Positions 905-42,553 of a stretch of 64,000 bases of DNA are shown here, piece by piece (position 1 is the first letter of the stretch; the number at the start of each line of letters is the position of its first letter). The DNA comes from Geosiphon pyriformis uo1 (lineage: Eukaryota; Fungi; Glomeromycota), in assembly GCA_016748015.1 (NCBI GenBank), contig JAAOMT010000193.1, positions 1 to 64,000 of the forward strand, in the 5' to 3' direction. The notes under the pieces are model-generated. The model worked only from the letters and a program-made list of their open reading frames with translations, was not told the origin of the DNA and ran no database searches. The translations under genes were made by a program, and so were the position numbers.

Positions 905-1799
905 TGTTACTTATAGAATATAAGAAATATAGTATTATTAGTTAGTAGATATTAGCCAATCAGATGAAGACGTAGTAAATGTGGAATTTCAGGATTTCTC
1001 TCAGAGGAATTGCAGAATTCCAGGAATTTTAGGATTCTCCAATGAGAAATTCCAGAATTCCAGAATTCCAGGATTCCTCTCATCAGAAATCACAGGATTT
1101 CAAGAATTCTAGAATTTCTGTTGCAAGAAATTGAGAAATTGAGGAATCTTAATTATGTATATATAGCAGTAAGATTAGAAGCTGAAAAAACAGATCTTGG
1201 AAGTTTAGATTTCTCTAAGCAATCTTCCACATTACAAATATCAAATAAATAATTATTCACTATCTCAAATCTCTTCCCAACTATCAACATTTCATGTTGA
1301 TAATAGCACATACTTAACCATACTGGAACAATAACTTTTAATCACAGCTATTAACAGGATACGAATCAAAATCACCTCGGCTTATTTTCTTTATTTCATT
1401 TTTTTTTTTCATTTTTTTTTTCTTTTCTTGTGTTGTTTTGTTGTTGTATACTAATTGATTAAGGATTAGAAGCACTGAGTTATTGACGTCATAAATAGCC
1501 TGATAAAAGACCCAGAAATAAGGGTAGAATTTTATATATTATCAGATAGCTTACCAGAAAGGCATGACTGCCAGACTAAATCTGGCCTCCATGTTGAGAA
1601 AAAAATTGAACAGAATTGCGATTCCAAAGACTATTACAAATACAGTCAAATCTCTGTTCATTATACAAAGAACTCCACCAAAACCTTTCAGATCGCATAA
1701 GACCTTCAGATTACCAACATTAACAGAAATCAATAGCTTTTGAGCACCAAGTTACAGGTTTGTTATTTATTCTCACACCAAAAATAATCACTTGTAACA
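905..1799 (+). repeat. E1 5' LTR (family A)
   Basis: TG...CA termini, direct repeat of 10208-11094, AGCCAATCAG (CCAAT box) at ~955 and TATATATAGC at ~1159. Confidence 0.95.
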
Positions 1800-1818
1800 T
1801 TTGGTGCTTTCTGTAAGG
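1800..1818 (+). promoter_or_regulatory. Primer binding site (tRNA 3'-end complement; consensus TGGTGCTCYCTGTGAGG)
   Basis: TGG starts 2 nt after the LTR end. The same motif occurs at 11497-11515 (+), 30423-30441 (-) and ~37383-37400 (-). Confidence 0.85.
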
Positions 1819-1861
1819 TATAATCCTACAGAGAACCAGCACCAACAAACACCATCTAAAA

Positions 1862-4800
1862 GTGGCAGAATTAGAAAACATAGGAGTAAACCATTTAAGA
1901 TTCATGAAATCTCTATTTCAACACTATTGTCAACACTTGGAATTAAACCACAATCATATATCCGCCGAATCAGCCTTTAATTTCTACATTAATAAAAAGA
2001 TTTTTTCTTTGTTAGGAACATCAGTGAATACTAAAGCAGCCAGAAAAACTTTCTACAGAGAATTAATTCAAAATACCAACCTGCCAACAAATCACAATTT
2101 TGTCTCTATCATTACTAAAATCAACAAAGAAATTGAACATCATACCCAACAAAGGTATCCAATTACTTACGTCAGTAAAGGCAAAGAAAAACTACAAACA
2201 CTAGCAATAACACCCAAAAAGATACAACTACCCACTTGGAAGAAAACAAGAGTTGAATCACCAACTGTGCTATCCTATTACTACACACTGGAAAGCACCA
2301 TCAATATAATATCAGCAAGCATGTCCACATCAAATGCAACATTAATATTTGGACAATTTTCATTCCAAAGTAAACAAAAAAAAACAGAGTTATTAGGACC
2401 ATATGGCAAATATTTTGAAGGATTTAAATTGTGATCACTGATACCATCAGGAATTTGATCACTGCCACCTCAACCAGACTTTGGAACCACTACCTCATGG
2501 GAATTATCTGAAGAAGAAGAGGAAAAAGAATCAAAAGATTAAGAATTTACTTACCAAAACCCAATCACTGAAACCTGGAAGTTGAAACCCCAAATCTTCA
2601 AACTTAACAAAATCTAAATCTAGAAAATTCGGAAATAGAAACTCCAAATCATCAAAGGCAGAACAATTCAAACCCCGAATTAATTAATTAGCAAAACTTA
2701 TCTCCAGTAATCATCATCAATCAACCACCAATTAATCCAATAGCCGAATCCATACAGCAGCCACTTTAACTACCACTCCAACAACCAGTACCACAACAAC
2801 CACTTCAACAGCCCCAGCAATTTATAGTACCAATAGTCTATGCACCAATTGCCAAATTAGAAAAATTCACTGGTTAAGAGAATGATGCTCAAGCTTGGTT
2901 GAATAATGTCACTAAAGCAATCATGGCAAACAATTGGAATGATGGCAGAGCTCTTTAGGCAATCCCATATTTCTTCCAAGATACCGTGGATTCGTGGTAC
3001 CAAAGCTTAGCTACAAAACCTCAAACATTTGACACATTTAAGCAGGAGTTTCTAAAATATTTTAGTAATAATAACAGTATCAACTGTTTGGTAAATACTT
3101 TTACTACCATCAAACAAGGGAACACTGAAGCCATTACCACGTACTTGGGACAATTCCATAGATGCCTGCGCCAGATCCAAGCTATCAATGCTGATTATTT
3201 CACAGTGGCCCAAATTTTAAATCAGTTTATCAAAGACTTATACAGTAGTATTCTCCAGCGCATATGTCCACTACATCCAGCAGATTTACAAACAGCCATC
3301 ACTAATGCCAAAAATTTTGAAGCAGCTGAACTCGAAGCTAACCATGCCCAAGCTATTAATCTAGTAATAAATAGATCATCTGAATTGGATTCTAAATTGA
3401 AACAATTCAGTGATTTCATCAATCAAAAATTAGAGGGATACTTAGCTGACAATTGAGCAATCTATCAACCGCCACAATAATACAACAATCAGGGAAACTT
3501 TAGTCATGTCCAAAATCAACCACATCCATCATTTTCAGCCAATCAACAGTGGCTACAAGAAATGCATGTTTGCCACTATTGTGATAAACAAGAACACATA
3601 CAAGTCAATTGCCACCAGCATTTAAATAACCAATGATTGGGAAATCAATATTGAAACCCCAATCACTGGTTCCCAGCTCTGAGTTCTCAGCAAAATTAAG
3701 AACAATACCAATACTTACCTCATTATGTACCAATGACACAGCAATCAATTTATCAGCCTCTGATATATCAAGCTCAAATTTATCAACCACAGCCACAAGT
3801 AATTTATCAACAACCACAACCACCAATAATCTATTAACCCCAACAAATTCAAACACCACCCCAAAACTTACCACCCAATGGAACACAAAGACCAAGAATG
3901 GTTCAACAGAGCTAGAGATCGGCAATGGTAGTTCATTAGCCAATTCCCAGTTCTTCACAGCAACTATCTGGATTATGCCAGTGGAATTTGGGTACTGGTC
4001 AACCCCAAAACCTGAATTTCCAGAACTATTTAAGTCTTCTGATTACCCCAGAAAACACCTCAGCCAATAACCTGGAATCCACCCAAAAACAACTACTCAC
4101 CAGTAATATCCTACCTGCTACTATCACCGAAGATGAGTTCTTGACTGCTATCTTCCCATTCAAATTTGAGAAAACAACTGCAATGCTGTTATTTAGTGGA
4201 GCTGCTCTTGAAGCCAAACCAATTACTGTAATGTACACGGATGCCAAAGTTGATGGACAATCTATCAAATTGATCTTTGACAGTGGTTCAGCAGGTAGCA
4301 TTATCACACAACAACTTATGGACCAATTAGGTCACCGAGTTGATCTTGCTGCTAGCGCCAGAATCATCACAGCCAATGAAGTAACCAAAATGCCTATCGG
4401 CGAGATAGATGAATTCCCATTTGAAGTCAATGGCATTATCACTTCCATCAAAGTCTTAGTGATGGAAGCCACCCAATACCAAGCTTTAGTTAGTAATGAC
4501 TGGCTGTCCAAAACCAACATCATTCTGGACTGGATGATGCAAGAGCTCCAACTAAGCATCAATGGTCAACACACACATGTGCCAACCACATGTGGCCACT
4601 TCAAGATTCTGTTAAGAGAGGAACTATTGATAAAGCTGAAGGAAGAAAAAAGAAGCCTATTTGAGAAGCTTACCAAATTTCGTGGACCGACAACGACCAC
4701 AATAAATTGCCACTCATACTCTCATGGAACGACAAAGGAAAGAGGAAAGAAAAAGAAGAACTTACCTGGGGAACAAACCAAGGATTATGAAGTAATGACA

Positions 4801-7800
4801 GCCAAAGTGAACTAGCCACTGAATGAAGTTGGAAAGAAAAGAGGAAAGGAAAAGAACAGGAAGAGGAACCAAAACAAACCACCTCCTCCACTCATATTCT
4901 ATATGTGACACTATCTCAAAATGCTTATTGTTGACCCAAACTTGTATGTGTCAGTTGTGGCAAGAAACTGTCAACAATGGGCGCATGCTGTAGTAAGAAC
5001 AAAGAATAGATGACAGCAACCAAGTACTATTGTTACCCATGCATTCTTGAATGCGATGGACAACTGCCAAAAATAGGAAAATGGGATGGTACTTTGTGTT
5101 TAGCTTGTGAAGATATCCTCTTAGATGAAGGGATGTGGAAAAACATTCCTGGAAGAGGAGGAGCATGCAATGAGACATGCCAATACACTATCCTGATCAA
5201 CAACTGGGTATGAAAAGAAACTCCCATTGACAATGTCTGGAAGCAAGCATTAAGATGTCTAGAAGGATACTCACATGACAAAGATAAGATCTAGAGAATA
5301 GCATATGCTATGTCAGAAGGTGCTACAACAGAGGAGCTGAGAGAAATTAAAAACAACCTACTATCCCTACCTGAGCCCGAATATGTCCAAATCTTTGATG
5401 TTTTTGGCAACATCGAAGACGAATTAGAGAAATTTCATGAGCACTCCCAGCAACTAGCATTCACAAAAGAAGAACAAGAAGAGTGTTTAGCACAGCTAAA
5501 CACCTAGCTATGTGACTACTGTTTAATTCCATATGACTTTTAATATTGTAATGAGTATAACCTCATTTACAATCCACCACCATGCATGATCTACATGATC
5601 CCTGAAGAGAAAGAACCAATTAGTAATTGCACATCAGAATCAGAATTGCCAATCAATTACAATTCAAACTCTGACAATGATGACGACAACAACAGTTTAA
5701 GCTCCATTCAAAATGGCAATAACAATGACAATAATTCCAACTCTGATCCAAACTCTGATACAAACTACAAACAATATATTGCACTACCAAATCTTTCTAA
5801 GGAGCAGAAGTTGAAATAGTATAGTGACAATGGGGAAGGTATTATGTTAGAATGCGTGCATGATACTGATGCAGAGTTTGATCTGAGATATCCAGAAAAA
5901 GATGCTATTAAATTGAAGCCAAATGCACGAGTATGCATTGATCTGAGAATAGCTCTAGAGATCCCAGCAACAATCATGGTTCTGTTAGCATTTAGAAGTA
6001 GTTTAGCAAAAAAAGGAATTAATATTAAAGGGGGAATAGTGGATGCAGAATATACAGAAAATATCAGTGCCATGTTACAAAATAACTCAGAAAAGGCTTA
6101 TACCATTGAGCCAAATGAAAAGATAGCACAGGCAATATTTCTGCCACTAGTTAAAGTAGCTAACTTAATGTCAGTGAGAACAAGGGAAAAATTAAAGATA
6201 ACAGCAAGAGGGATACAAGGATTTGGATCAATGGGTAAAATAGATGTACCAGTTAATATGGTGGAGGAAAAAATTGTTGGTCAAGGAAAAATTATCTCAA
6301 CTGGTCAAGCTATTTCCATTCCACCATATAGCCAGTACATGCTAGCAATAGAAAAAAAGGAAAAAGAACAGCATCAGATTTTTGAAGCAGAACTGACCCT
6401 TTGTAAATCAGGAGAGATTAAACTCATCAATCTCCACATACCAGCCAAAAATTACAGCCACATCAAAATTCCCATCTACAACAACACAGGAAATGTCATA
6501 GTAATACCAGCCAGAACCACCATGGGATACTTAAACACTAAAATAGAGGATCAACCACCAAACCCCATTCCAGACTTTCCACAGCTTTGTGAATATGTCG
6601 ACATTACATCACAAACAATCTATGGACGAGATAAATGTTATTTGCTCTAACTAAAACAATTAGAACAAATGAACATAAGAAATCTAGACCCACTACAATG
6701 TATGCAGCTCAAGATGTTACTCAACAATTTCAATGACATCTTTGCCAGTGAAAACAAATTTGGCAGAACTGACATCATCCAACATCAAATCAAGACTGGA
6801 GATGCAATGCCAATCAAACAGCAAGCATACAGAGTACCACCAGCCAGCCATAAAATCATCTGTTCAAGAGAGTAACCGAATGCTTGACAATGAGTTAATT
6901 CAGCTATCAATAAGTCCATGGTTGTCACCAGTAGTACTTGTCCATAAGAAGAATGGAAAGATCCGATTTTGTGTAGACTACAGAAAACTAAATAGTGTAA
7001 TTTGTGGAGACAACTATCCAACTCCACGAATACAAGAACTATTCGATGCTTTTGGTGGAAACAAATAGTTTTCAATGTTAGACTTAGATAGTGGTTACTG
7101 ACAAGTAGCCATGGATCCAGCCAACAAAGAAAAAATAGCATTCACCATAAAAGAGAGAAACTTTGAGTTTGAAGTTATGCTATTTGGCTTAACCAATGCA
7201 CCAGCCACTTTCCAATGGCTAATAGAAATTGTTTATACTGGCTTATTGTGGAAATCAGTAGTTGTATACTTGGACGACACCAATGTATTCTCAAAAACAT
7301 TTGATGATCATCTTTATCATCTTCAACAAGTGTTTGAAAGACTAAGAAGAGCAGAACTAAAGTTAAATGCAACAAAGTGCTTCTTTGACAAGACAGAACT
7401 AAAATTTTTGGAACACATAGTCAGCAAAGATGGCATCAAAATGGATCCAGAGAAAATAGAGATAGTAAAGAACTTTTCAGTACTGACCAATATGACAGAA
7501 CTGAAATCATTCTTAGGATTTGCCAGCTACTATTGACATTTTATCAAGAACTTTTCCAAGATAGTGCAGCCACTTAACCAACTGCAAACCAAGAATACAA
7601 AATATAAATGGACAGAAAGTCAATAAGAAGCTTTTGATATTCTGAAAAGAAAGCTCATTCAAGCTCCAGTATTGATCTATCCAGATTACAGCAAACCATT
7701 TATCATCACCACTGATGCATCCGGCCAAGCATTAGGAGCAGTACTATCTCAGAAAAGACCAGACAGCAGAGAACATCCAGTAGCATATGCCAGCAGAGGT

Positions 7801-8070
7801 TTAACACCAGCCGAAAAAAACTATGGAACACCAGAACAAGAACACTTAGTAATATACTGGGCAGTTATGAAATGGAAAGAATACTTGAGCCAGAAGTTTG
7901 AAGTATACACAGATCACAAAGATTTAACATCACTCCAAAAACAAGAATTTGGAGATAAAAAACAGTCAAGATGGAAAATGGCACTCGCATTATATAATTA
8001 TACTATACATTATAAAAAAGAAAAAGACAACGGAAATGCTGATGGTTTATCACAAATGAGACAAATCTAA
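1862..8070 (+). pseudogene. E1 Gag-Pol-like polyprotein (N-extension, capsid, CCHC knuckle, aspartic protease, Cys-rich region, dUTPase, RT, RNase H), disrupted
   Basis: Capsid-like SWYQSL...EFLKYFS; knuckle CHYCDKQEHIQVNC at ~3571; protease LIFDSGSAGS; RT RFCVDYRKLN, FGLTNAPATFQ, VYLDD; RNase H TDASG...YASRGLTPAEKNY. Stops are mainly transition-type (CAA/CAG/CGA/TGG to stop). Confidence 0.92.
5844..6240 (+). pseudogene. dut: dUTPase domain of E1
   Basis: Trimeric dUTPase motifs: DA(E/G)FDL, RSSLAKKG, GGIVDA(E/G)Y, EKIAQ, RGIQGFGS(M/T)G. Confidence 0.9.
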
Positions 8071-8131
8071 GGACATTTCAACCCAAAAATATAACAAAAC
8101 CAAAACAATACTTACAAAAATATAACAAAAG

Positions 8132-9508
8132 ATGAACACACAAAAATATCAACAACTTCAACATTATATAGATACTTAACAGTTCAAGGAGAAATTATCT
8201 CAACCAGAACAAAAGAAAATCAAACAACAATCCAAATATTTTATCATCCACCAAAATATACTTTATCAGAAAAATAGAAAAGATTCAAATTAGCCAACCA
8301 GAGTAATTACAGAACCAGAAAAGGAAACAATACTGTTCAACATACATTCAGATCCAACTGCAGGACATTTTCATAAAGAAGCAATCATGGAAAGAACCAA
8401 AAAGAGATATTATTGGTCATCAATGTATCCAGACATCATACAATATGTACAAAATTGTGATGCTTGTCAAAAAAGAGGAGAAACAAGACCCAGCAAACCA
8501 TTGAGACCAATCAAAATGGGACAACTATTTAACCACATTGGAATCAATTTAGTTGGACCATTGACAATTACCAGCAAAGGCAACAGATATATTGCAGTAA
8601 CCATGGACTACCTTACAAAATGGCCAGAAGCAAAAGCAATTCAAAAAGTGGATGCAGAATCTGTTGTCGAATTCGTCCATCAAGATTTGATTTGTCAATA
8701 TGGATGTCCAAAAGAACTATTATCAGACCAAAGAACCCATTTTGTGAATAGAACATTAGCAAAACTAAGCCAAAGATTCGGAATTAAGAGACCACAATCA
8801 TCACCATACCATTCACAAACCAATGGATTAGTTGAAAGATTTAATAGAACATTGTGTAAAGCAATAGTAAAACTCAGCCAAGAAAACCAAGATGAATGGG
8901 ATTTGTTTATACCATTCATACTATTGGCTTATCGGACAATGAAGCAAGACACTACACAAACAACACCATTTGAATTAGTATATAGTAGAACAGCAACACT
9001 ACCAGTCGAGATAGAAGTCAACACTTATCCAACAGAACCAATAACTGTAGACAATTTTCAGAAAACATTACTAAGAAAAACATATGAATTGATGGAAACT
9101 CTAAAAAACAAGTGACGAAGAGCAGCTGATAACATTAAAAAGGCACAAGAAAAACAAAAAGAAAGGCATGATAACCAACTACCAGACAAACCAGTTGAAT
9201 TCAAGATTGGAGACAAAGTACCTTTACATCATACTAAAGCGGAAAACCAATGGAGTGGGAAATTTGACTCCAAATGGGATAGACCATTTTACATAGAAGA
9301 AATTCTAGGAAATGGAGCTTACAAATTAAGACTGGACAACAGAATCTTAGCCAAAGCAGCACATGGTGATTGATTGAAACCATATTACCAGATAGCATTA
9401 GCATCTACCAATAACATTCCACAACTGGAAGTACAAAGAATACTAGTTCAACCAGATAAGATTCCACAAGACTGGGAACCAATCATAATCATTAGACCAA
9501 ACACATAA
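8132..9508 (+). pseudogene. E1 integrase, separate ORF
   Basis: ATG 61 nt after the RNase H stop. HHCC zinc domain (H-SDPTAGH...CDAC), DDE core (DLVGPL-like, SDQRTHF, NGLVERFN) and GPF/Y-type C-terminus (KWD.PF). Confidence 0.9.
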
Positions 9509-9510
9509 AA

Positions 9511-10194
9511 TTGAACAACAAAAGAGTATATAAAGACATAGTCAACACGACAAAAGATACCAGAAAAATGGAAATAACCAACAACATCCACTCACTAGCA
9601 CAACAACTCTTTCAATTGATCCAACACCAAGAAATGGAAATTACAATCAATCAACAAACCATTCGTTACAAAAATATGGCAAAGATACCACAACACAAAG
9701 CACAGAAAAGACTTGAAAATGTTGTTAACAAGATCATGACCAAGATAAAATTGGCCATAAATAAACAACAAATAGTCAGATTATACCAAGACCTTACCAG
9801 AGAAACTTAGACTTGGTGGATACAACAATTTCTGAAAAACTATTGTCATTTCTACTTGGGACAACACATAAATATCCAGAATTTGTACACCGACAAAACA
9901 AAACAGTTATTTGACACAACAATGAGACAACTGGAACAATTTGTGGAAAAGAACAATCTAACCACACAAGCTCAAGCCATCTACTGGCTATATATGGAAT
10001 TTTAGAATCGACCAGAAATCTTACTCAACACAGCCATGGATACAATTACAAGTAATCAATTGGGAAAAATGACCAATGCCCAATTTGAAGAACTACAAAC
10101 TAAAATAACACAAATTATACTTGAAAAAGAAGTTCAAGAAATAATTTAAGAAGGGGAATTAAAGAAATTAGATTTCGACAGAGCTCAATATTAA
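9511..10194 (+). pseudogene. E1 ORF3, unknown ~220-aa protein between IN and PPT
   Basis: Homologous to the intact ORF at 21734-22393(-). Ends ...DFDRAQY-TAA directly at the PPT. Confidence 0.8.
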
Positions 10195-10207
10195 AAGAAG
10201 GGAATAA

Positions 10208-11094
10208 TGTTACTCATAGAATATAAAAAATATAATATTATTAGTCAGTAGATATTAGCCAATCAGATGAAGATGTAGTAAATGTGGAATTCCAGGATTC
10301 CTCTTATAGGAATTGCAAAATTCCAGGAATTTCAGGATTCTCTGACAAGAAATCGCAGGATTCCAGAATTTCAGAATTCCTCTCATCAGGAATTGCAAGA
10401 TTCCAGGAATTCCAGGATTTCTGTTGCAAGGAATTGAGAAATTGAGGAATCTCAATTATGTATATATAGCAGTAGGATTAGAAGCTGAAAAGACAGACCT
10501 CGGAAGTTTAGATTTCTCTAAGCAATCTTTCACATCACAAATATCAAATAAATAATTATTCACTATCTCAAATTCCTTCTCAACTATCAACATTTCATGT
10601 TAATAATAGCACATACTTAACCATACTGGAACAATAGCTTTTAATCACAGCTATTGATGGGATACAAATCAAAATTGTCTTGGCTTATTTTCTTTATTTC
10701 ATTTTTTTTTTTCTTTTTTTTCTTTGTGTTGTTTTGTTGTTGTATACTAATTAATTAAGGATTAGAAGTGTTGAGTTATTGATATCATGGATAGCCTGGT
10801 AAAAACCCAAAAATAAGGGTAAAATTTTATATATTATCGGATAGCTTACCAGAAGGGCACAACTGCCAGACTAAATCCAGCCTCCACGCTGAGAAAGAAA
10901 TTGGACGGAATTGTGATTCTGAAGATTATTACAAATACAGTTGAATTTCTGTTCATTATACAAAGAACTTCATCAAAACCCTTCAGATTACATAAAATCT
11001 TCAGATTACCAACATTAACAGAAATCAATAGCTTTTGAACACCAAGTTACGAGTTTGTTATTTATTCTCACACCAGAAATAATCACTTGTAACA
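10208..11094 (+). repeat. E1 3' LTR (family A)
   Basis: Direct repeat of 905-1799, preceded by the purine tract AAAAGAAGGGAATAA. Confidence 0.95.
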
Positions 11095-11558
11095 ATGAGA
11101 TACTAATTTACATTGTCTTGGCTTATTGTCTCTATTTTCTTTATCTCTTTTATTTTTTGTCTTTATTTTGTTGGGTATACTAAGTGATTGAAGATTAAAG
11201 TGCTAAGTATTGACATTAAGAATTGCCTGGTAAAAAACCTCTATGAGTAAGTAGAATGCATATGAATTACAAATTGCTTAGAGGATTGCTGGCCACTATG
11301 CTGAGAAAAAAATTAACGGAATTGTGATTCCGGGAAGCTATGGAAAAAATAACATGAGAATCTCTGTCCATTATACAAAAAACTTTAATCAAAACTTTCC
11401 GATTAAAACACCTTCAGACATTACTAACATCATCAATTAAGCACCAAGTTACAGGTTTGTTATTTGCTTTGAGATCCCAAATAATCACCTGTAATATTTG
11501 GTGCTTCCTGTGAGGTATAATTCTACAAAGAACCAGTATCAACAACAATTATCCAAAA

Positions 11559-14500
11559 GTGGCAGAATCAGAAATCATAGGAGCAAACCATTTAGGATTT
11601 GCCAAATCTTTGTTTCAACAGTACAGCCAACAGTTAGGATTAAACAACAACTATTTTCCAGCAGAATCAGTCTTCAACTTTTATGTTAATGATAAAATCA
11701 CAGACTGCTTAGAAGGAACAGTTAACATTGAATCTGCAAGAGAAAATTTCTATACAGAATTATTTCAATATATCAGCTTACCAAGAAACCACAGTTTTGC
11801 ACCAATCATCAGGGAAATCAATCAAATTATTGAAAGATACACCCAACAACAATTCTCTATCATCTATGCAGACAAAAACAAAAGAAGGTTGCAAACACCA
11901 GCAGTAACACCCAAAAAGATACAACCACCCACTTAGAAGAAAACCAGAGTTGAATCACCAACCAATCCATCATATCATTATACACCAGAAAGTGCCATTA
12001 ATATATTATCAGCAGACACATCCACATTAAACACAACATTAATCTTTGGACAATTTCCATTCCAAAGTAAACAAAGAAGAGCAGAGTTACTAAAACCATA
12101 TGGCAAATATTTTGAAGGATTTAAATTGTGATTGCCAACACCATCAGATTTCTGATCACTGCCACCTCAACCAGATTTTGGAAATGCGAGTCTCTGGGAA
12201 ATAATAGAATCAGAAGAGAAAGAAGAAGAAAAAGCTGAAGATCAGGAATTTACTTACCAGAATCTGATCACAAAGAATTCAGAAATTAAAACCCCGAACA
12301 TTCAAACCCAGCAAACTTTGAATAATCTAAATCCTGAGTTAATTAATCAAAGAAACTTACCTTCAATAATCATCATCGATCAGCCACCAATTGTATCAAT
12401 ACTGAAACCAATTCCACTGCAGCCACTTCAGCAACCTATTCAACCACCACTTCAACAACCCCAACAGCTATTGTAACAACCACAACCATAACAATTGAAT
12501 TTGAATCCAATGGCCTACACTCCAATAACAAAACTTGAAAAGTTTATCAGCGAAGAAGACAATGCCCAAATATGGCTCAACAACATTGAAAAGACTATTA
12601 CAGCAAATAGATGGAATGACACAAGAGCCCTCCAAGCCATCTTTTACTTTTTCCAAGATACTGCCAATTCATGATATCAAAGTCTAGCTAACAAACTCCA
12701 AGATTTCAATGCATTCAAGCTTGCATTTCTACAATACTTTAGTAATAATAATAACATCAATCATTTGGCAAACACTTTTACTACCATTAAGCAAAGAGAA
12801 AATGAAGCAGTCACTACTTACTTAGGATGCTTCCACAGAAATCTGTGCCAAATTCAGGCCATACAGACTGATTATTTCACAATACCACAAATCCTAAATC
12901 AATTCATTTGAGGCCTGCACAGTAGCATTTTCCAATGCATACATCCAATGCACCTGGCAGATCTTTAAGCTGCCATTACAAATGCCAGAGATTTTGAAGC
13001 AGCTGAACTTAAAGCCAACCATACCCAAGCTGTAAATCTAGTGATAAACAAATCATCTGAATTGGATTCCAAATTGAAACAATTCAGTGATTCAATTAAT
13101 CAGAAACTAGAAGGATACTTAGCTAACAATTGAGCAATTTATCAGCCTCTACAATAATGCAATAATTCAGAAAACATGAATTGTTTCCAAAATTAGTCAT
13201 GTTTTTCATCATTATCATTCAATCAGCTGTGGCAGCAAGAAATGCGTAGTTGCTACAATTGTGGTAAACAAAGTCACATCAGAGCTAGCTGCTGAGGTTA
13301 TAGCAATAATCTACAATTGGAGAATCAAAATTGAAACTCTGATTGCAGATTTCAAACTCTGAACCACTACCCAAATCAAGATCACTATCAACCACACTAT
13401 ACTCAAATAGCACAACAACCAATATACCAAACTTCAGCACCAATTATCTACCAGCCATAGCCGCAAGTAATATATTAGCCACAACAAATTCAAACCCCAC
13501 CACACCATTTAATCCAGACATTATCTGGAAACCAAAGACTAAGAATTGTTTAGCAAAACTAGAGATTAGTGATAGTTGTATATCAACTGATCCCTAGTTT
13601 ATCCAACCATGCCTTAGAATCACATCCCAAGAATTCGGGAAATGGGTACAACCAAAATCAAAGTTCCCAGAACTATCTGAGTCTTCTGGTTGCCCCAAAA
13701 GACACCTCAACTAACAACAACCTGGAAACCTTCCTGAAGCAAATAATCAATAACAACATATCTCCAGCCACCATCACAAATGATGAATCATTAGCAGCCA
13801 TTTTTCTTTTCAAAATTAAGAGATCAACCAAAACCTCTCTCTTTAGTAGAGCCGCCCTTAATACAAAACCCATTACTGTCATGTACACTGATGCCAAAAT
13901 TGATGGACAGGCCATCAAGCTGATCCTAGACAGTGGTTCAGTAGGCAGCATCATCACATGACAACTCATAGATCAATTAGGTTACCAAGTTGATCGTGCT
14001 GCCAGTGCCAGAATTATCACTACTAATGGAACCACCAAAACTCTAATTGGCGAAATCAACAACTTTCCTATTAAAATCAATGGTATCATTATACCAATCA
14101 AGATTTTAGTCATGGAAGCCACCCAGTACTAAGCTTTTATTAATAATGACTGGTTGTCTAAAACCAACGCTATGCTTGACTAGAACATCCAGGAGCTACA
14201 GCTCAACCAAAATGGGCAGCATACTAAAGTATCAGCCACTTGTAGACACTTCAAGACTACTACAACCACACCACTAATTGAATTTAAGGAAAAAGAAAAG
14301 AAACCTATCTGAGAAGCCTATCAAGTTTCATAAGCTGACACCAATTACAACGAATTACTGCCAATATTGTTTTGGAACAACAAAGAAAAAAAAAAAGAAG
14401 AAAACAAGCCACAAGAAGATACCACCAACAAAATTACCAGTGGCTGGGAAAGTTCTTATTCAACTGATACCAGACCAGAACCACCCTATATTCTACTCCA

Positions 14501-17482: not shown

Positions 17483-17495
17483 TTATTTCCTCCTT

Positions 17496-22393: not shown

Positions 22394-22434
22394 GTCTTTA
22401 TATATTCTTTTGATGGATCAATTTAACATGTTGT

Positions 22435-24126: not shown

Positions 24127-24188
24127 CTTTTGTTATATTTTTCGTTGGTATTGTTCTGATTTTGTTATATTTTTGGGTTGAAATGTTC

Positions 24189-31325: not shown

Positions 31326-34300
31326 TCGGCTGGCATATGCTACTGGATGTTCTCTGCCATCTGGTCCCTTTTGAGATAGTACTGTTCTTAATGCTTGGTC
31401 TGATGCATCAGTGGTAATAATGAATGGTTTGTTGTGATTTGGATAGATCAGTACTGGAGCTTGAATAAGCTTTCTTTTCAGAATATCAAAAGCTTCTTGT
31501 TGACTTTCTGTCCATTCATATTTTGTATTTTTGGTTTGCAGATTATTGAGTAGTTGAGCTATTTTTGAAAAGTTCTTTATAAAGTGTCGATAATAGCTTG
31601 CAAATCCCAAGAATGATTTCAATTCAGTCATATTAGTTGGTATTGGAAAGTTCTTTACTATCTTTATTTTCTCTGGATCCATTTTGATGTCGTTTTTACT
31701 GACTATGTGTCCCAAGAATTTTAGTTCTGTCTTGCTGAAGAAGCACTTTGTTGCATTTAACTTTAGTCCTGCTCTTCTTAGTCTTTTGAACACTTGTTGA
31801 AGATAATGAAGATAATCATCAAATGTTTTTGAGAATACATTGGTGTCATCCAAGTATACAACTACTGATTTCCACAATAAGCCAGTATAAATGATTTCCA
31901 TTAGCCATTGGAAAGTGGCTGGAGCATTGGTTAAGCTGAAGAGCATTACTTCAAATTTGAAATTCTCTTCTCTAGTGGTGAATGCCATCTTCTTTTTGTC
32001 GGCTGGATCCATGGCTACTTGCCAGTAACCACTTTCTAAGTCTAATGTTGAGAACCATTTGTTTTTGCTGAAAGCGTTGAACAATTCTTGTATTCTTGGT
32101 GTTGGATAGCTGTTTCCACGAGTTACACCATTGAGTTTTCTGTAGTCCACACAAAATCAGATTTTTCCATTCTTCTTCCAGATGAGTACCACTAGTAATG
32201 ACTATGGACTTATTGATGGTTGAATTAGCCCATTGTTAAACATTTGGTTTATTTCTTAACGAATAATCTCATGGCTAGCTGGTAGTACTCTGTATGCTCT
32301 TTGTTTAATTGGCATTGCATCTTCAGTCTTAATCTAATGCTGGATGATGTCAGTTCGGCCAAACTTGTTTTCACTGGCAAAAATGTCATTGAAATTGTTG
32401 AGCAACATCTTGAGCTGCATATGTTGAAGTGGATTTAAGTTTCCTATGTTTATTTGTTCCAATTGCTCTGGTTGGAGCAAATAACATTCGTTTTGTCCAT
32501 ATATTGTTTGTGATGTAATATTAACATATCCACAAAGCTGTAGAAAGTCCAAAATGGTGCTTGGTGGTTGATTCTTTATTTTAGTGCTTAAGTATCTAAT
32601 GGTGGTTCCAGCTGGTATTACTATGACATTTTCTGTATTATTATAGATGGGAATTTTGATGTGGCTGTAATCTTTGGCTAGTATATGAAGATTGATGAGT
32701 CCAATCTCTCCTGATTCACAAAAGGTTGGTTCTGCTTCAAAAATCTGATTCTGTTCTTTTACTTCCCACTTTATTCCTACTATGTACTGGCCATATGGTG
32801 GAATGAAAATTGCTTGACCCGTTAAGATAATTTCTTCTTGGTTAACAATTTTTTCTTCTGCCATATTGACTAGTACATCTATTCTACCTGTTGATCTAAA
32901 TCCCTGTATTTTTTTTGTTGTTATTCCTAATTCCTCTCTATTTCCCACTAATACTAACTGCACTATTTTTACCAGAAGGAGGAAAATTGTCTGTGCTATC
33001 TTTTCATTTGGCTCTATGATATAGGTCTTTTCAGAGTTGTTTTGTAGCATAACAATGATATTTCCTACATATTCTGCATTAATTATTCCTCCTCTTATAT
33101 TAATCTCTCTTTTCACTAAACTACTCCTATATACTAGTTAAAATATTGTTATTGCTGGGATTTCTAATGCTATTTTTAGATCAATGCAAGTGCATGAATG
33201 TGGTTTCAATTTGATTGCATCTTTTCCTGGATACCTCAGATCAAATCCAGCATCAGTATTATGCATGCGTTCCAGCATAATACCTTCATTATTATCATTA
33301 TACTATTTTAACTTCTGTTCTTTGAAGAGGTCTGGCAGTGCAATGTATTGTTCATATTTTGGGTCGAAATTTGAATCTAAGTTGGAATCATCATCATTGT
33401 TATTGCCAATTTGAACAGAGCTGAAACTGGTGTTTTTGTCATCATCGTTGTCGGAGTTTGAATTAGGATTGAACAGTGATTCCGATTTGGATGTGTAACT
33501 GCTGATTGGTTTGATTTCCTCTGGAATCGTGTAGATTATGCATGGTAGTGGATTGTAAATGAGATCACACTCATTACAATATTGGAAGTTACAGGAAATC
33601 AAACAGTGGTCACATAATCGGGTGTTTAGTTGTTCTAAATACTGCTTCTGCTCTTCTCTTGTAGGTGCCAAATTTTGGTAGTATTTGTGGAAGTCTTCTG
33701 GATCTGTTTCTTTGTCCATGAAAGCATCTGGATTAGGAATATGAATGATATCAACTGGTTCTGGAGGATTGTTCTTAATTTCCAGTATTTCACTGAGTGT
33801 AGCACCTTCTACTTTGGCATTGGCCATTCACCAGATCTCCTCTTCATCATGGGGGTAACTGTTTAAATGATCAAGTGTTTGGTGCCATGCTGCTGTAATT
33901 GGGATAACACGACTTACCCAGTCACTAATGAGGATCGTATATTGGCACAAAGTGTTACACGTTCCTCCTCGACCAGGAATGTCATTCCATATTCCTTCAT
34001 CAAGCAGTTGTTCACTGCAAGCGAGACATGGTTCATTGTTCCACTTGCCCTGTTTTTTTGGGTAGCTATAGCATTTTCTATAGCATGGCTTACAATAATA
34101 ATGGGTTTGCATCCAGTGGTTTTTGTCTGGCACGATCTATGCTCCCATGGAAAAAAATTTCTTTTCACAGTCTTTGCATTTGAGTGGAATATATGGTGAT
34201 TGTGGTAGTGGCTCATGAACTGAGTATAAACTGGTCCAGCCACTGGTTATTTCACTGGTACTGGTGGTCTCTTCCAGTGTGGTTTCTTTCCCTTTTCCCT

Positions 34301-37300
34301 TTCTATTATCTTTCTCTTCCCATTCCCAATCGGCTGGTTTATTGTAGTCATTTTTTGTTTTCCAAGCTTGGTCAGAGGTCCAGATAAGTTCTGTTTCTTT
34401 TTGCTTTCCTTTAATGTTGCCATTCCAAGAAGGTACTGATGGCAACTTGTTATGGTCTTGGTCAGCCCACAAGACTTAATAAGCTTCCCAGGTAGGTTTT
34501 TTTGTTTCTTCCTCAAACTCGATGAGTAGTTGGGCGTTGCTTGGCTTAAAGTGACCACAAGTGGCCAGTGTTCGAGTATGCTGACCACCAAAGGTTAATT
34601 ATAGTTTTTGGGTGGTCCAATTAAGAGTAGTGTGGGTTTTTAACAACCAATTATTGCCCACGAGAGCCTGGTATTGTGTGGCTTCCATTACCAAGACTTT
34701 GATAGGTATGATAATGCCATTGATTTCGAATGAGAAATCGTTGATTTCGCCGATTGGAGTTTTGGTCGCTCCATCAGTAGTGATTATATGAGCACTAACA
34801 GCACGATCAACTCGGCGACCTAATTGGTCCATGAGTTGTTGCGTGATAATGCTGCCTACTGAACCATTGTCTAGGATTAATTTAATGGAATGGCCATTTA
34901 CTTTGGCATTAGTGTATATTGCTGTAATGAGTTTTTCTTCAAGAGCAGCTCTACTAAATAATGGGACTGGAATGGTTTCCTCAAACTCAAATGAAAAGAT
35001 GGCTGCTAATGTTTCATTTTTGGTGACCATTGCTGGTAGTATGTTGCTGGTAAGTTTTTGAATTGGGTTGGTTTCTGGGTTGCTGGGTGTGGCGTCTTCT
35101 GGGATAACCAGGAAACTTAAATAGTTCTGGGAATTTAGGTTTTGGGTGGCATCGGTACCCAAATTCTGAGAATGCAATCCTGATGGTGAGTTGGAGGAAC
35201 TGGAGATCAGTTGGTGAACAACCATTGCTGATCTCCAGTTTTGTTGTGTCATTCTTGGTCTTTGGGTTCTGTGTTAAGGTAAGTTTTGGGGTGGTGTTTG
35301 AAAGGTTTTAGGTTGATAGATTAATTGTGGCTGTGGTTGATAGATTATGGATGGCTGTAGTTGATATATTGCTAGTGGCTGTGGTTGATAAACTGGGGTT
35401 TGATATACTAATGCTTAATAAATTGGCTGTTGTGTCATTGGCAGGTAAGTGTTTTGATTTTGCTCTTGATTTTGATATTGATTCGGAGTTTGGAATCGGT
35501 AATCGGGGTTTCAATGTTGATTTCCTGATCATTAGTTATAAGCATTGCAGTTGGCTCTTATGTGGCCTTGTTTACCACAGTTGTGGCAGACATGCATCTC
35601 TGGCTGTCACTGCTGATTGGCCAATGTTAAGGGATGTGCTTGATTTTAGAAACGATTGTAGTTTCCCTAATTACTGTGTCTTTGGGGAGATTGATAAATG
35701 GACTGATAGTTGTTAGCTAAGTATCCCTTGATTTTCTGATTGATGGTATTACTGATTTGCTTTAATTTAGAATCCAAATCAGATGATCTATTCATTACTA
35801 AATTTATAGCTTGAGTGTGATTGGCTTCTAGCTCAGCTGATTTGAAATCTCTGGTGTGTGTGACTACAGCTTGAAGGTTGGCTGGGTGTAATGGGCATAC
35901 ATGTTGCAAAATGCTACTGTACAGGCCACAAATAAACTGGTTGAGAATCTGGGGTTCTGTAAAATACACAGCATTGATGGCTTGAATTTGGTGTAGGACT
36001 CTATGAAAGCATTCTAGGTATGTTGTGACTGCTTCAGTATTATTCTGTTTGATTGTGGTGAAAGTATTGGCTAGACAATTAATACTGTTATTGTTGCTAA
36101 AATATCCCAGAAAGGCAGTTTTGAATTGTTAGAATGTTTGTGGTCTGGCAGCTAAACTCTGGTACCAAGAATTGGTGGTTTTTTTAAGAAAGTATAAAAT
36201 CACCTGTAAGACTCTGGCATCATCCCAATTGTTTGCTATGATGAGACATCATTGATCCATGCTTGAGTGTTGTCTTCTTCACCAATAAAGTTTTCTAACT
36301 TGGCAATGGGTGCATAAGCCATTTGGTTTACGTTTAGTTGTTGTTGTGGCTGCTGTAGCAGTTGTTGTTACAGTGGTGGTTGCTAAGATGGTCTTTGTGG
36401 CTGTTGAATTTGCAGATTTGGTTGTTGAGGTGGCTGCTGAATGGGTTTGACTATCAGATCAATTGGTGGGTGATTGATAACAATATTTGGAAGTACATTT
36501 GACTGATTAATTAAATCAGAGTTTTGATTGTTTTGATTTTGCTGAGTTCTAATATTCAGAGTTTCAATTTCCAAATTTTTTATGTTTGGATTTCGCGGAG
36601 TTTGAACATTCGGAATTCCAAATTCCGAGTTTTCTGAAATCAGGTTTTGGTAAGTGAATCCTTGATCTTCACTTCCTTCCTTTTCTTCCTCTGATAATTC
36701 CCATGGAGTAGCAGCTCTAAAATCTGGTTGGGGTATTGGTGATCAAATTCCTGATGGCATTAGAGATCGTGATTTAAATTCTTCAAAATACATGCCATAT
36801 GGTCCTAGTAAGTCTTCTTTCTGTTGTTTGTTTTGGAACTGAAATCTTCCAAATATTGATGTTGTGTTTGATGTGGATGCGTCTGCTAATGAAATGTTAA
36901 TGGCACTTCCAGGTGTGTAGTGATATGATGGAGTGGTTGGTAATTCTACTCTGTGTTTCTTTCAACTAGGTAACTGTATTTCTTTTGGTGTTGCTGCTGG
37001 TGTTTGTATTCTTTCTTTACTTTTGTCTGCATAAGTAATGGAAAATTGTTGTTGTGTGTATTTTTCAATGGTTTGATTAATTTCCCTGATAATTCGGGCA
37101 AAACTGTGATTTTTTGGTAAACTGGTGTGTTGAAATAATTCTGTATAGAAATTTTCTTTTGCTGACTTGATATTAATAGTTTCTCCTAAACAGTCTGTGA
37201 TTTTATTATTGACATAATAGTTAAAAGCTGATTTGGCTGAGTAGTGATTACTGTTTAATCCTAATTGTTGACTGTATTGTTGAAACAAAGATTTTGCGAA

Positions 37301-37339
37301 TTCTAAGTGGTTGGCTCCTATAATTTATGATTCTGCCAT
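31326..37339 (-). pseudogene. E3 polyprotein (N-extension, Gag, PR, Cys-rich region, dUTPase at ~32890-33280, RT, RNase H start)
   Basis: ORFs 36962-37288, 35667-35969, 34599-35252, 33303-34472, 32334-33116 and 31314-32150 (YLDD). Confidence 0.92.
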
Positions 37340-37400
37340 GTTTGGATGGTGTTGTTGGTGCTGGTTTTCTGTAAGATTATATCTCACAGAGAGCACCAAA

Positions 37401-38314
37401 TGTTACAGGTGATTCTTTGGGGTGTTGAGTGAATAACAAACCTGTAACTTGGTGCTCAAAGCAATTGGTGACAATGATAATCTGAAGGTTTTCCAATTGA
37501 GTTCTTTGTATAATGGACAGAGATTCATTGATAACAGTTTATTAGTAGTTTTCTGAAACCATAGTTTTGTCAATTGCTTGCTCAGCTTGATGGTTGATGA
37601 TTCTTCTGGTATAATATCCTCCGTAAGTGTATACCAGTGTTGTTTCCTAATGTCAGTTTCTCTGTAAGTCCTCCAAGAGTAAGTATTGTTTAAGCAAGTT
37701 TATTCCTCTATAAGTCCTCTAAGAGTAAGTATTGTTTAAGTAAGTTTTATTCCTCCATAAGTCTTCCAAGAGTAAATCTTTTAATCAAGTTAGTAAACAA
37801 CAAAGAAAATAAAGAAAAGATAAAAGAAAAAAGAAAAAATAAGCCAAGGCAATTTGCAAGTTGGTATCTTGTTAATAGCCGTGATCAAGAGCTATTGTTC
37901 CAGTATGATTAAGTATCAGTTACTATCAACATAAAGTGTTGATAGTAAAGAATGAATTTGATATAGTGAATAATTATTTATTTGAGGATTGTGATAACTA
38001 AGTTAAGGATTCTTGGTGTCAATTCTCCCTTTTTCTGCTTCTAATACTACTGCTATATATACATATTTGAGATTCCTCAATTCTTCAATTCCTTGTAACA
38101 GAAATCCTGAAATTCCTGGAATTCTGCGATTCCTGATGAGAGGAATCCTGGAATTCTGGAATTCTGCAATTCTTCGCCAGAGAATTCTAAAATTCCTGGA
38201 ATTCTGTAATTCCTCTGAAAGGAATCTTGGAATTCCACATTTATTATGTCTACTTCTGATTGGCTAATATCTACTTGTTAATAATAATATACTTCCTATA
38301 TTCTATGAGTAACA
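37401..38314 (-). repeat. E3 5' LTR (family C)
   Basis: Direct repeat of 16554-17482, adjacent to the PBS. Confidence 0.92.
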
Positions 38315-41300
38315 CTAACTCCAAAAATCCAAGAACTATTTAATGCTTTTGGAGAAAAAAATGGTTTTCAACTTTGGATTTAGACAGCAATTACTGGCAA
38401 GTAGCCATAAAACTGGAAGATAAAGAGAAAATGGCTTTTACAATGTGAAAAGGGAATTTCAAATTTGAAGTAATGCCATTTGGTTTGATGAATGTACCAG
38501 CCACCTTCCAACGACTAATAGAAATTATTTACATTAGACTACTATGAAAATTAGTAATTGTTTACTTAAATGACACAAATGTGTTTTCCAAGACATTCAA
38601 TGATCATTTGCATCATTTTTAACAAGTGTTTGAAAGACTAAAAAGAGCTGGATTAAAATTAAATGCAACCAAGTGTTTCTTTGGAAAAACTGAACTCAAG
38701 TTTTTGGGACATATTGTGAGCAAAAATGGTATCAAAACAGATCCAGACAAGATCAAAGTAGTTAAAAACTTTCTAGTACCAGCCAATTTGACAGAACTAA
38801 GAGCATTCTTGGGATTTGCCAGATACTATTGCCACTTTATCAAAAATTTTTCTAAACTGGCCCAGCTATTACACCAGCTTCAATCAAAAAATATCAAATA
38901 TGAATGGACAGAAAACCAGCAAGAAGCTTTTAACATATTAAGAAGAAAGCTTATTCAAGCTTCAGTGTTGATGTATCCAGATCACAGCAAACCATTCATC
39001 ATTACCACTGATGCATCAGGCCAAGCAATGGAAGCAGTACTATCACAGAAAAGACTGAATGGAAAAGAACATCCAATAGCATATGCCAGCCAAAGTTTGA
39101 GTCCAGCTGAAAAGAACTATAGAACACTAGCATTAAAACACTTAGCAATCTATTGGACAGTCATGAAATAGAAAGAATACTTAAGCCAGAAGTTTAACAT
39201 ATACACTGATCATAAAGGATTGACTTCAATTCAGAAGCAAAAATTTGGAGATAATCATCATGCTCGATGGAAAATAAAACTTTTACCATTTAAATATACC
39301 GTACACTACAAAAAAAGAAAAAAAAAACAGAAATGCTGATGGTTTATTACGAATAAGACAAATCTAAGGACACTTCAACCCAAAAATATAACAAAAGATG
39401 AATAAACAAAAATATCAACAACTTCAATATTTTATAAATACCCAATAGTTCAAGGAGAAATTATCTTAAAAGAAACAAAATCATATTAAACAACAGTCCA
39501 AATATTTTATTATTAACCAAAATATACTTTATCAAAAAAACAGAAAGAATCCAGATCAACCAACCAAAGTAATTACAGAATTAGAAAAAGAAACAATATT
39601 ATTCAACATGTACTCCGATTCAATAGCAGAACATTTTTACAAAGAAGCAACCATAGAAAGAACCAGAAATAAATACTATTGGCCATTCATATACCCAGAC
39701 ATAATCCAATACGTGTAAAATTGTGATACTTGTCAGAGAAAAGAAAGAACAAAACCTAGCAAGCCATTAAGACCAATCAAAGTAAGACAACCATTTGAGT
39801 GGATTGGAATTGACTTAGTTAGACTATTAACAATAATTAGCAGAAGGAACAAATATATCACAGTAGCCATAAATTATCTCACTAAATGGCCAGAAGCAAA
39901 AGTAATTCAAAGAGCAGATGCAGAATTTGTTGCCAAATTTGTTCATCAAGATCTGATTTGTCGACATGGATGTCTAAAAGAATTATTATCTAACCAAAGA
40001 ACTTACTTTGTGAATAGAATATTAACAGAACTGAGTCAAAGATTTGGAATAAAGAGACTATTATTATTGTTATATCACCCACAAACCAATAGATTAGTCA
40101 AAAAATTCAATAGAACATTGTGTGAAGCAATAGCCAAAATCAGCCAAGAAAACCACAAATGAGACTTATTTATACCATTAGTACTATTTGCTTATTGGAC
40201 AATGAAGCAAGATACTACACAAGCAACACTATTTGAATTAGTATACAATAGAACAGCAATATTACCAGTTGAGATAGAGGTCAATACATATCCAATAGAA
40301 CCAATAACAGAAGACAATTTTCAAGAAACATTGCTGAGAAGAACATATGATGTAATGGAAATACTAGAAAACAAATGGCAAAGAGCAGCTAATAACATTT
40401 AAAAATCACAAAAAAAACAAAAAAAAAAGCATGATAACTAACTACCAGATAAATCAGTCGAATTCAGGATTGGAGACAAAGTACTGTTACATTATACCAA
40501 AGCAGAAAAACAGTGAAATGGAAAGTTTGATTCAAAATGGGACGGACCATTTCACATACACAAAATTTTAAGAAACAGATCTTACAAGTTATGATTAGAA
40601 AACAGAATTCTGAAAAAGACAGCACATGGAAATTGTTTAAAAATTTATCAAACACAAGGATCGACATTAGTGGAACCACAACTAGGAACACAAATTCCAT
40701 TAATCAGACCAGAAGATATACCACAAGATATAGAACCAATAATAATCATTAAGACATAGCTACATATGTGCCGAAATCCAGATATTATGCATATATAAAC
40801 CTCAAGACCACAAAGAAGAAAACAATAGAAATTTTAAACATAGACCTTTTAGACAAAATTTTAAAATTATCTAAACAATTATTTAATAAAATTCAAAAAT
40901 CTACATCTCAAATAGAAATTATAATCAATAAAAAAGAGATAAGATATAGAGATAAGGGGAAGAAAGAAATAGGTGAGAGTTCAACTAGAACTAACTATTC
41001 TTATTCCTATACTCTGCCCGGAAAGGAAATTTTACAAAAAGAAATTAAATATACTTCTTAGATGGGACATGGAGAAAAAGGAGAGAAGAAAGAAGAAAGA
41101 GTGAAAAAATTAGATAGAAAACAAAAACAATTATATACAACATATTTGGCCCTTAAGCTAAAGAAAATTAAAGAATCTTTAGCTCATGAGACTGAACTCC
41201 CCGAAACAAGAGAGTGGACACCAGATAATGTTTAGGAGTGAAAAAAAAGACTTCTTCTAATATATTGGTTTTATAAAATTGGAGAACAATTAGACTTAGA

Positions 41301-41610
41301 AAACCCATACAGAGACTACAACCAGAAAACTTTCAACAAAGAAGCAATGTAACAAGTAGAAAAATTTGTAGGAAGAAACAACCTAACACTACACTACAAG
41401 GCAACATGTCGATTATACGTCACTTTTCAATATTGTCCAAATGTACTATTGAATAGATCATTGAAAAAGATAACAGTCAACAACATAGAACAAATAACCA
41501 ATTAACAGTTCGAAGATCTACAAAAAGCCATAGTCAATATAACCATCGAACATTACATAAACAAAGTTCTATTAACAGACATAACTGATTTTGCAAAAGC
41601 TCAATATTAA
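38315..41610 (+). pseudogene. E2 3' part: RT/RNase H (stop at 39365-39367), integrase (39398-40759) and a divergent ORF3 (~40768-41610)
   Basis: ORF 38626-39171 (TDASGQ), IN motifs, and an ORF3 C-terminus FVGRNNL...DFAKAQY* shared with the other copies. Confidence 0.88.
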
Positions 41611-41625
41611 AAAAGAAGAAGATAA

Positions 41626-42553
41626 TGTTACTTAAAGAAAAAAAGCCTATCAAAAAAAAAAAAAAAATGTGACCTAAAAAAAAACATAACGAAACATGAA
41701 AGGACACAGAATAGTATACAATAACATTAAATAATGCATTATAATATTGGATAATGCATTATAATGTAGGATAATGTGTTATAATATGAAATAATATAAA
41801 ATAACATGTAATAATGTTAGATAATGTGTTATAACATAGGATAATTAGTTATAATGTAAGAAAAATAAAGCAATAGCTAACAAGAACAGACAATCCAAAG
41901 CAATCCTGTAAAACTAGAAAATACATATATATAGTAGTAGCATTAGAGGCAGAAAAAAAAGAAAAGAAAAAGAGAAAAAAGAAATTCTTTGGTTACTATT
42001 TTCTAGTTAAAAATCATAGCATTCCAAAATATCAACAAATATACTTATTCAGTATCTCAAATTCAGTTGTTTACTATCAATTCTAAATGGTGATAGTAAT
42101 TGATACTTAAAACATACGGGAACAATAACCCTTGATCATGGCTATTAATGGAATACTAACTTACATTGTCTTGGCTTATTGTCTCTATTTTTTTTATTTT
42201 TTTTATTTTTTTGTCTTTATTTTGTTGGGTATACTAAGTGATTGAGGATTAAAGTACTAAGTATTGATGTTAAGAATTGCCTGGTAAAAGACTCCTATGA
42301 ATGGGTAGAACACATAAGAATTATGGATTACTTACCAAAAGATTGCTGGCCATCATGCTAAGAAAGAAATTGATGGAATTGTAATTCTGAGAAGCTATGG
42401 AAAAAATAACACGGGAATCTCTGTCCATTATACAAAAAACTCCAATCAAAACCTTCTGATTGAAACACCTTTAGACATTATTAACATTATTAATTAAGCA
42501 CCAAGTTATGAGTTTGTTATTTGCTTTGAGACTCCAAATAATTATCTGTAATA
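41626..42553 (+). repeat. E2 3' LTR (family B; U3 built from ~10-nt GATAATGT-type repeats)
   Basis: Follows the PPT. Contains the sequences seen at 558-904 (reversed) and 11095-11496. Confidence 0.9.

Follow-up and report, generated by a model that had tools for sequence, protein, structure and literature searches.

A decayed Ty3/Gypsy family of Geosiphon pyriformis with integrase in a reading frame of its own

Retrotransposons with long terminal repeats (LTRs) are commonly taught to release integrase by protease cleavage of a Gag-Pol polyprotein, which also explains how the enzyme is packaged. A lineage that starts integrase afresh at the RNase H boundary needs another route of expression and packaging. 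For canonical Metaviridae (Ty3/Gypsy), published accounts give a single Pol polyprotein that ends with integrase (PMC3248453). A dUTPase between protease and reverse transcriptase (RT) has been described in PosPlaTy3-5 of Postia, in elements of Phanerochaete and Tuber, in the rotifer elements Juno, Vesta and TelKA and in planarian Burro, and the rotifer elements also carry varied third open reading frames (ORF3s) (PMC2864245, PMC5408684, PMC6431247). We analyzed a stretch of 64,000 nucleotides (nt) of the fungus Geosiphon pyriformis uo1 (contig JAAOMT010000193.1, positions 1 to 64,000; hereafter the window), in which four Ty3/Gypsy copies, E1-E4, carry integrase in a separate reading frame behind a stop codon. 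LTR elements are reported to make up 41.2% of the G. pyriformis genome (PMC11952901); the accessible text of this survey and of a second survey of transposable elements in these fungi (10.1101/2021.03.30.436303) gives no element structure. We read E1-E4 as decayed copies of a Ty3/Gypsy retrotransposon from a fungus of the Glomeromycotina type, with integrase as a separate gene, and lean slightly towards the view that this integrase is made by termination and restart on the full-length RNA.

The junction between RNase H and integrase

Self-comparison and reading of the junctions revealed that positions 17-42553 consist of nested LTR elements. E3 is the outermost, with E1 inside its 5' LTR and E4 inside its RT, and E2 lies inside the RNase H of E4. 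After removal of the inserts, the internal regions of E1-E4 were colinear and 8,396-8,533 nt long, with pairwise identities of 54-90% (per 600 columns). TG..CA LTR ends, a TGG motif resembling a primer-binding site (PBS) and a polypurine tract were present in each copy. LTR identity, computed with approximate E3 and E4 boundaries, was 89-92% within and 73-82% between elements; from these values, we regard E1-E4 as subfamilies of one family.

The copies have one reading frame in common from the PBS through the end of RNase H. It encodes, in this order, an N-terminal extension, Gag, protease, a Cys-rich domain, dUTPase, a beta-rich module, RT and RNase H; the stop codon, integrase and an ORF3 of about 210 amino acids (aa), which ends at the polypurine tract, follow. 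Pfam matches came in the order Gag, protease, dUTPase, RT, RNase H and integrase. Frame-breaking indels between the N-terminal extension and RNase H were each private to one copy.

All four copies have both the stop that closes RNase H (E1 8068-8070) and the ATG of integrase (E1 8132), separated by 61, 62, 30 and 62 nt in E1, E2, E3 and E4, respectively, that is, in three different frames. The spacers were 53-60% A, had no internal ATG and showed no pyrimidine tract ahead of the integrase ATG, which was preceded by AAG in every copy. A second TAA lies in the integrase frame, two codons upstream of the ATG. Frameshift or read-through into integrase was considered and rejected, because with this second stop and the varying frame neither could fuse integrase to the polyprotein. 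Run X1 may be the window's own source and so would hold other copies in one genome rather than an independent second genome; in its 1,105 contig pieces that cover the junction, the first stop and the integrase ATG showed no variant at 1% or above, and the second in-frame stop showed a 4.6% variant.

All four copies have decayed. The commonest private changes were C>T and G>A, and the signature of repeat-induced point mutation was absent from E1-E4 (TpA/ApT below 1). Decay stops were found at 57 positions in 1,799 scored codons; 50 were private, five occurred in two copies, two in three and none in all four. We further examined coding constraint. All extra modules showed constraint at the codon level, with the frame taken as that with the fewest stops. 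Because this choice of frame and the neglect of transition bias belong to the method, a shuffle test was added, in which the changes shared between copies were compared at third and second codon positions. Third-position changes exceeded second-position changes in 10 of 11 modules (p ≤ 0.009), and the excess was not significant in dUTPase (p 0.17). Integrase and ORF3, both downstream of the RNase H stop, were under coding constraint, and the four insertions of more than 10 nt in the ORF3 of E3 were all multiples of three.

A preliminary description of the window had proposed a common internal layout of about 8.4 kb, ancestral rather than a product of decay, with an uncoupled integrase. The colinear regions of 8.4-8.5 kb, the stop and separate ATG in four of four copies and the absence of any of the 57 decay stops from all four copies agree with this. 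The same description had named a ratio of nonsynonymous to synonymous changes (dN/dS) near 1 as a sign that the extra modules are not conserved; such a ratio was not found. Its "different LTRs" proved to be homologous, as judged from the identities between and within elements.

Relatives with a split integrase

Relatives were selected from 140 candidate proteins, of which 88 passed (one RT, near full length, identity of at least 45%). Forty-five of the 88 end no more than 45 aa past the last RNase H motif; at least three of these seem to be truncated where their contig stops. Integrase is present in 26, and the other 17 extend further with no integrase match. These labels clustered on the tree, needing 3 changes where shuffled labels needed 23 on average. 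Among the species represented in clusters of these proteins are Rhizophagus irregularis, R. clarus and Cetraspora pellucida. Identity of RT-RNase H to the nearest relatives reached 61%. Four proteins of R. irregularis end at the last RNase H motif, and one of R. clarus begins at the integrase Met.

Metagenome scans gave 79 loci, 44 with fused integrase, 15 without integrase and 20 not fused, and then 81 further loci, 59 fused, 13 without integrase, 5 cut and 4 not fused. Because the scans used generic RT motifs, most of these loci are ordinary Gypsy elements. Three of the 20 non-fused loci were read: the split is clean in L002 and in L003, and the third, L007, is decayed and was not counted. 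One of the four further non-fused loci, L104, was read and has the split. The stop and ATG are 30 nt apart in L002, whose ORFs are uninterrupted, 74 nt in L003 and 139 nt in L104. Uninterrupted relatives at about 50% RT identity are also split, and the integrase Met of the window copies aligned with that of L002, L003 and R. clarus.

RT and integrase trees were built from Gypsy-type sequences only, with no Copia, Bel or retrovirus outgroup; the nearest RT and integrase relatives carry Gypsy-type Pfam sets. Free RT trees left the place of the window family open, as a deep branch. A tree constrained to unite it with the split group was not rejected (approximately unbiased test, p 0.578). The window integrase grouped with split integrases and two fused ones (Shimodaira-Hasegawa-like approximate likelihood ratio test, SH-aLRT, 94). 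A single origin of the split is possible on these trees. Judged from the sequences compared, the split integrase is not peculiar to the window family but is found in a wide group of elements, among them those of Rhizophagus. The free integrase, common to this wider group in mycorrhizal-type fungi, is the most interesting trait of the family.

It had been suggested that the unusual modules together define an undescribed clade. The modules do not jointly mark one clade, and dUTPase between protease and RT occurs in only some members of the split group. The part of the suggestion that stands is the lack of a published account: no description of Gypsy elements whose integrase has an ORF of its own was found in the literature covered, with subscription journals, Repbase, GyDB and supplements outside its scope. 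In the accessible text of PMC5911963 and PMC5890265, "separate ORF" means other things, not a split integrase.

Some other features were observed among the relatives. L002 has a long Cys-repeat extension ahead of Gag (1-1440), which bears no relation to the window's Cys-rich domain. In L011, the stop of RNase H is immediately followed by poly(A)/poly(T), with which the contig ends (1571-1670). A group of proteins (P0459, P0466, P0467 and P0456) has other captured modules: NUDIX upstream of protease, dUTPase downstream of RNase H, or, in the position of integrase behind RNase H, a Cys-rich extension. L104 and other loci from genome contigs are Gypsy elements in prokaryote genome bins, most likely mis-binned eukaryote DNA.

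Expression of the polyprotein and of integrase

The N-terminal extension contains no conserved in-frame ATG. Its start site reads GTG in E1-E3 and ATG in E4, with A at -3 and G at +4 around the GTG, and Val occupies the site in all three G. pyriformis proteins that cover it. Gag starts with ATG in E2-E4, where E1 has ATA. ATGs common to at least three copies numbered 3 in 1,092 leader columns versus 77 in 5,327 downstream columns (Fisher p 0.0005), and the three in the leader are out of frame and in weak context, with a pyrimidine at -3. The extension probably starts at the GTG, and the leader pattern fits a non-AUG start with leaky scanning to the Gag ATG. We rejected the possibility that the extension continues a frame opened in the LTR: each of the three frames is closed at the end of the LTR or at the PBS, and E4 is one base shorter there. 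As a separate observation, positions 1758-1831 are bounded by a donor-like GTTTGT in the U5 part of the LTR (eight of eight LTRs) and an acceptor-like TACAG after the PBS (three of four copies); speculatively, these could delimit a 74-nt intron whose splicing would remove the PBS from mRNA.

Because integrase has a gene of its own, preceded by a stop codon that all copies conserve, it is likely made by ribosome restart. Scanning ribosomes would start at the strong-context GTG and make an N-extended polyprotein of about 2,070 aa, and others would leak across the ATG-poor kilobase to the Gag ATG and make a product of about 1,745 aa. A fraction would restart past the RNase H stop to make integrase, with a probable further restart past integrase for ORF3, and these restarts would lower the dose of both proteins. 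Since free integrase cannot ride in on Gag-Pol, it would have to enter the particle by binding RNA or Gag.

Several observations weigh against this mechanism. Restart after an ORF of about 2,000 codons is unusual, and in the spacers of L003 and L104 a short frame with an ATG lies upstream of integrase and would be a competitor to scanning. The poly(A)/poly(T) of L011, a single contig end, would fit a separate integrase transcript, a predicted intron links RNase H with integrase in five R. clarus gene models, and the integrase-fused proteins P0463 and P0513 fall among the split integrases. As for the GTG start, E4 has ATG at this site, and a weak third-position bias extends to the 15 codons upstream of it.

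It is possible, if rather unlikely, that integrase and ORF3 are translated from subgenomic mRNAs of their own, either spliced from a donor near the 5' LTR or started at an internal promoter in RNase H. The GTTTGT block, invariant in the U5 of all eight LTRs, resembles a donor, but U5 ends are conserved anyway for integration and priming. The AAG ahead of the integrase ATG in all four copies and the contig end of L011 are also in line with such mRNAs, whereas the A-rich spacers lack an acceptor-like tract, the L003 spacer contains no AG at all and no AG adjoins the ATG in L002. Foamy virus Pol offers a precedent (PMC7828637).

An intron that removes the RNase H stop would fuse integrase to a shortened polyprotein, and integrase would still be packaged as Gag-Pol. 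This is improbable. The five R. clarus models that make the join (P0455, P0457, P0458, P0622 and P0625) support it, but the join deletes the last RNase H motif, and a sixth R. clarus model keeps that motif while a seventh starts at the integrase Met. No GT is found at the matching codon in the window copies, L002 or L003, and the conserved integrase Met would be superfluous. A last alternative is that the stop arose as a defect in a single progenitor, which intact helpers then amplified in trans, and that the extra ORFs are due to decay or chance. This would suit the heavy decay of all four copies with its dominant C>T and G>A changes, but it is largely refuted and very improbable given the constraint on integrase and ORF3 behind the stop, the in-frame lengths of the E3 ORF3 insertions, the lack of a read-through variant at 1% in X1 and the split in uninterrupted relatives at about 50% RT identity.

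The restart reading can be extended to a lineage across mycorrhizal-type fungi that would combine polycistronic RNA (non-AUG start, leaky scanning and two restarts), free integrase packaged without Gag-Pol, CG targeting in the window family and three new accessory domains. We offer this combination tentatively and consider it doubtful as a whole. The question is testable in Rhizophagus, the host of uninterrupted relatives.

Accessory modules, surrounding sequence and known systems

Gag and protease matched PF19259, PF03732 and PF13975 above the curated cut-offs. The dUTPase matched PF00692 (E 5e-21) and PDB entries, and TIGR00576 aligned over positions 18-143 of 143, below its cut-off. The five conserved motifs of trimeric dUTPases were read by eye in this first domain, which is, by these matches, a complete trimeric dUTPase; it would keep uracil out of the complementary DNA. 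The beta-rich module behind it had no Pfam or NCBIfam match, and its hhalign probability was 0.6% against the first dUTPase domain and 1.9% against Gypsy spacers. No Foldseek match was obtained at E 0.001 with a model too poor for use (predicted local distance difference test score, pLDDT, 40). Two higher hhalign values were discarded: 91% against dUTPase was an artefact of overlapping ends, and 93% against Gypsy spacers was circular. The one lead was that the pre-RT spacer of a single integrase-fused Gypsy protein matched weakly (E 0.033; 1 of 624 sequences), and because of it the module may be an ordinary Gypsy spacer.

The Cys-rich domain, which would bind zinc, matched no family and none of the other Cys-rich modules compared. 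The ORF3 model was helical and of low confidence (pLDDT 59); it had no match at E 0.001 among viral structures, and the best VIA value (Z 5.7) and the best E of the sequence against PDB, 0.054, were both taken as noise. No membrane-spanning stretch was found in ORF3 or the N-terminal extension, the highest 19-residue hydropathy being 0.27-0.87 in three ORF3 sequences, and no envelope family occurred among the Pfam matches of 65 members. ORF3 would be a soluble accessory factor rather than an envelope. Scans of viral contigs with single proteins gave no match, and profiles of the N-terminal extension, Cys-rich domain and ORF3 had no credible match among 624 non-Geosiphon sequences. The best 120 of 163 homologues of the dUTPase region were all G. 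pyriformis hypothetical proteins, as were 120 of 120 ORF3 homologues among the matches listed. For annotation, this means that at least 240 "hypothetical proteins" of G. pyriformis are pieces of the window family. The N-terminal, Cys-rich and ORF3 modules so far seem confined to this family, having been seen only in G. pyriformis proteins.

As regards the modules, the preliminary description was right that the N-terminal, Cys-rich and 3' modules match no family searched and that dUTPase has precedent in fungal elements, since those described from Postia, Phanerochaete and Tuber carry it between protease and RT (PMC2864245, PMC5408684, PMC6431247). Its "tandem dUTPase folds" reduce to one full dUTPase and a module with neither a family match nor a usable model, and its term "virus-like" finds no envelope family or membrane-spanning stretch to rest on.

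The features of the window are listed in Table 1.

Table 1. Positions of the elements and their parts in the window
Feature	Positions	Strand	Remarks
LTR of E1 type	17..557	-	part of a fifth insertion running off the left end of the window
E3 5' LTR piece	562..901	-	inverted
E1	905..11094	+	LTRs 905-1799 and 10208-11094
E1 N-terminal extension	1862..2832	+	in frame with Gag; ATG-poor; candidate GTG start 1862
E1 Gag	2833..3900	+	capsid, CCHC-like knuckle, Gln/Pro-rich linker
E1 aspartic protease	4150..4600	+	Pfam
E1 Cys/His-rich domain	4945..5650	+	20 conserved Cys/His columns, several CxxC pairs
E1 dUTPase	5820..6250	+	full-length, trimeric-type
E1 beta-rich module	6228..6647	+	3' of dUTPase
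E1 RT and RNase H	6650..8070	+	ends at conserved TAA 8068-8070
E1 A-rich spacer	8071..8131	+	61 nt, no ATG; in-frame TAA two codons ahead of integrase ATG
E1 stand-alone integrase ORF	8132..9508	+	H2C2 zinc finger, core, SH3-like module
E1 ORF3	9568..10194	+	about 209 aa, predicted helical, ends at polypurine tract
E2	20879..31325	-	GTG 30379, Gag ATG 29410, RNase H stop 24191, integrase ATG 24126, ORF3 ATG 22688; in E4 RNase H
E3	11095..42553	+	GTG 11559, Gag ATG 12510, RNase H stop 39365, integrase ATG 39398
E3 ORF3	about 40840-41605	+	diverged
E3 3' LTR	41626-42553	+	
E4	16554..38314	-	start 37339, Gag ATG 36322, RNase H stop 20604, integrase ATG 20539, ORF3 from about 18125; inserted in E3 RT; interrupted by E2 and a solo LTR
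TG..CA-bounded insert in E4 integrase C-terminus	18416..19389		likely solo LTR of another family

The E3 5' LTR piece at 562-901 lies inverted between two inverted LTRs, likely through recombination between them; an assembly error is the alternative. In the ORF3 of E2 (22130-22759), an exact 305-bp duplication surrounds a short N gap and is most likely an assembly artefact. The 4-bp flanks at all five insertion sites (557/11095, 905, 16554/38314, 18416/19389 and 20879/31325), clear for three sites and reconstructed for two, fit a central CG or its TG/CA decay product; the background of CG-type columns in the elements was 380 of 7,986. The family may prefer CG targets for insertion. Positions 43000-54000 have a GC content of 9-25% and TpA/ApT above 1 and are far more mutated than E1-E4; within this tract, a barely recognisable LTR relic of the window family lies at about 46620-47330. 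Host-like ORFs without CpG depletion occupy 54886-62714 and encode a RanBP-type zinc finger, a Y-family DNA polymerase (IMS), a G-patch protein and a 2OG-Fe(II) oxygenase.

Several known systems resemble the window elements in part. LINE-1, which restarts across a 63-nt spacer, and SART1, which restarts at a stop-start overlap, are described as translating a downstream enzyme ORF past the stop of a long upstream ORF (PMC5972666); both are non-LTR elements, and the analogy is one of mechanism only. Foamy virus Pol is reported to be made apart from Gag, from a spliced mRNA, and to be packaged through RNA (PMC7828637). There the whole of Pol is separate, whereas in the window elements integrase alone is. 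DGLT-A is described as having Gag and Pol in one ORF, as in the window (PMC5911963).

Chromoviruses carry a chromodomain at the integrase C-terminus. In the C-termini of the E1 and E2 integrases, both from decayed copies, the chromodomain test gave only SH3_Tf2-1, below cut-off, with E up to 1. Errantivirus-like elements have a membrane-anchored envelope as third ORF, and the ORF3 of the window lacks such features. The dUTPase-bearing Gypsy elements cited above are described with a canonical pol that includes integrase, and their accessible descriptions mention no separate integrase ORF, in contrast to the window. The closest likeness is with the elements of R. irregularis, R. clarus and C. 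pellucida and with L002, L003 and L104, in which the polyprotein ends at RNase H and integrase has its own Met. In these, unlike in the window family, no homologue of the N-terminal extension, the Cys-rich domain or ORF3 could be detected, and dUTPase occurs in only some; L002 also differs in having Gag and Pol in different frames.

The window elements have LTRs, a Ty3-type capsid and the order protease-RT-RNase H-integrase in common with canonical Ty3/Gypsy elements (Metaviridae), and differ from them in the stop-separated integrase ORF, the N-terminal extension, the Cys-rich domain and ORF3. Because integrase lies outside the Pol polyprotein in all four copies, the family is a variant lineage of Gypsy ancestry rather than a canonical member. 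Its architecture is real and conserved, and it is best described as a new variant lineage of Ty3/Gypsy ancestry.

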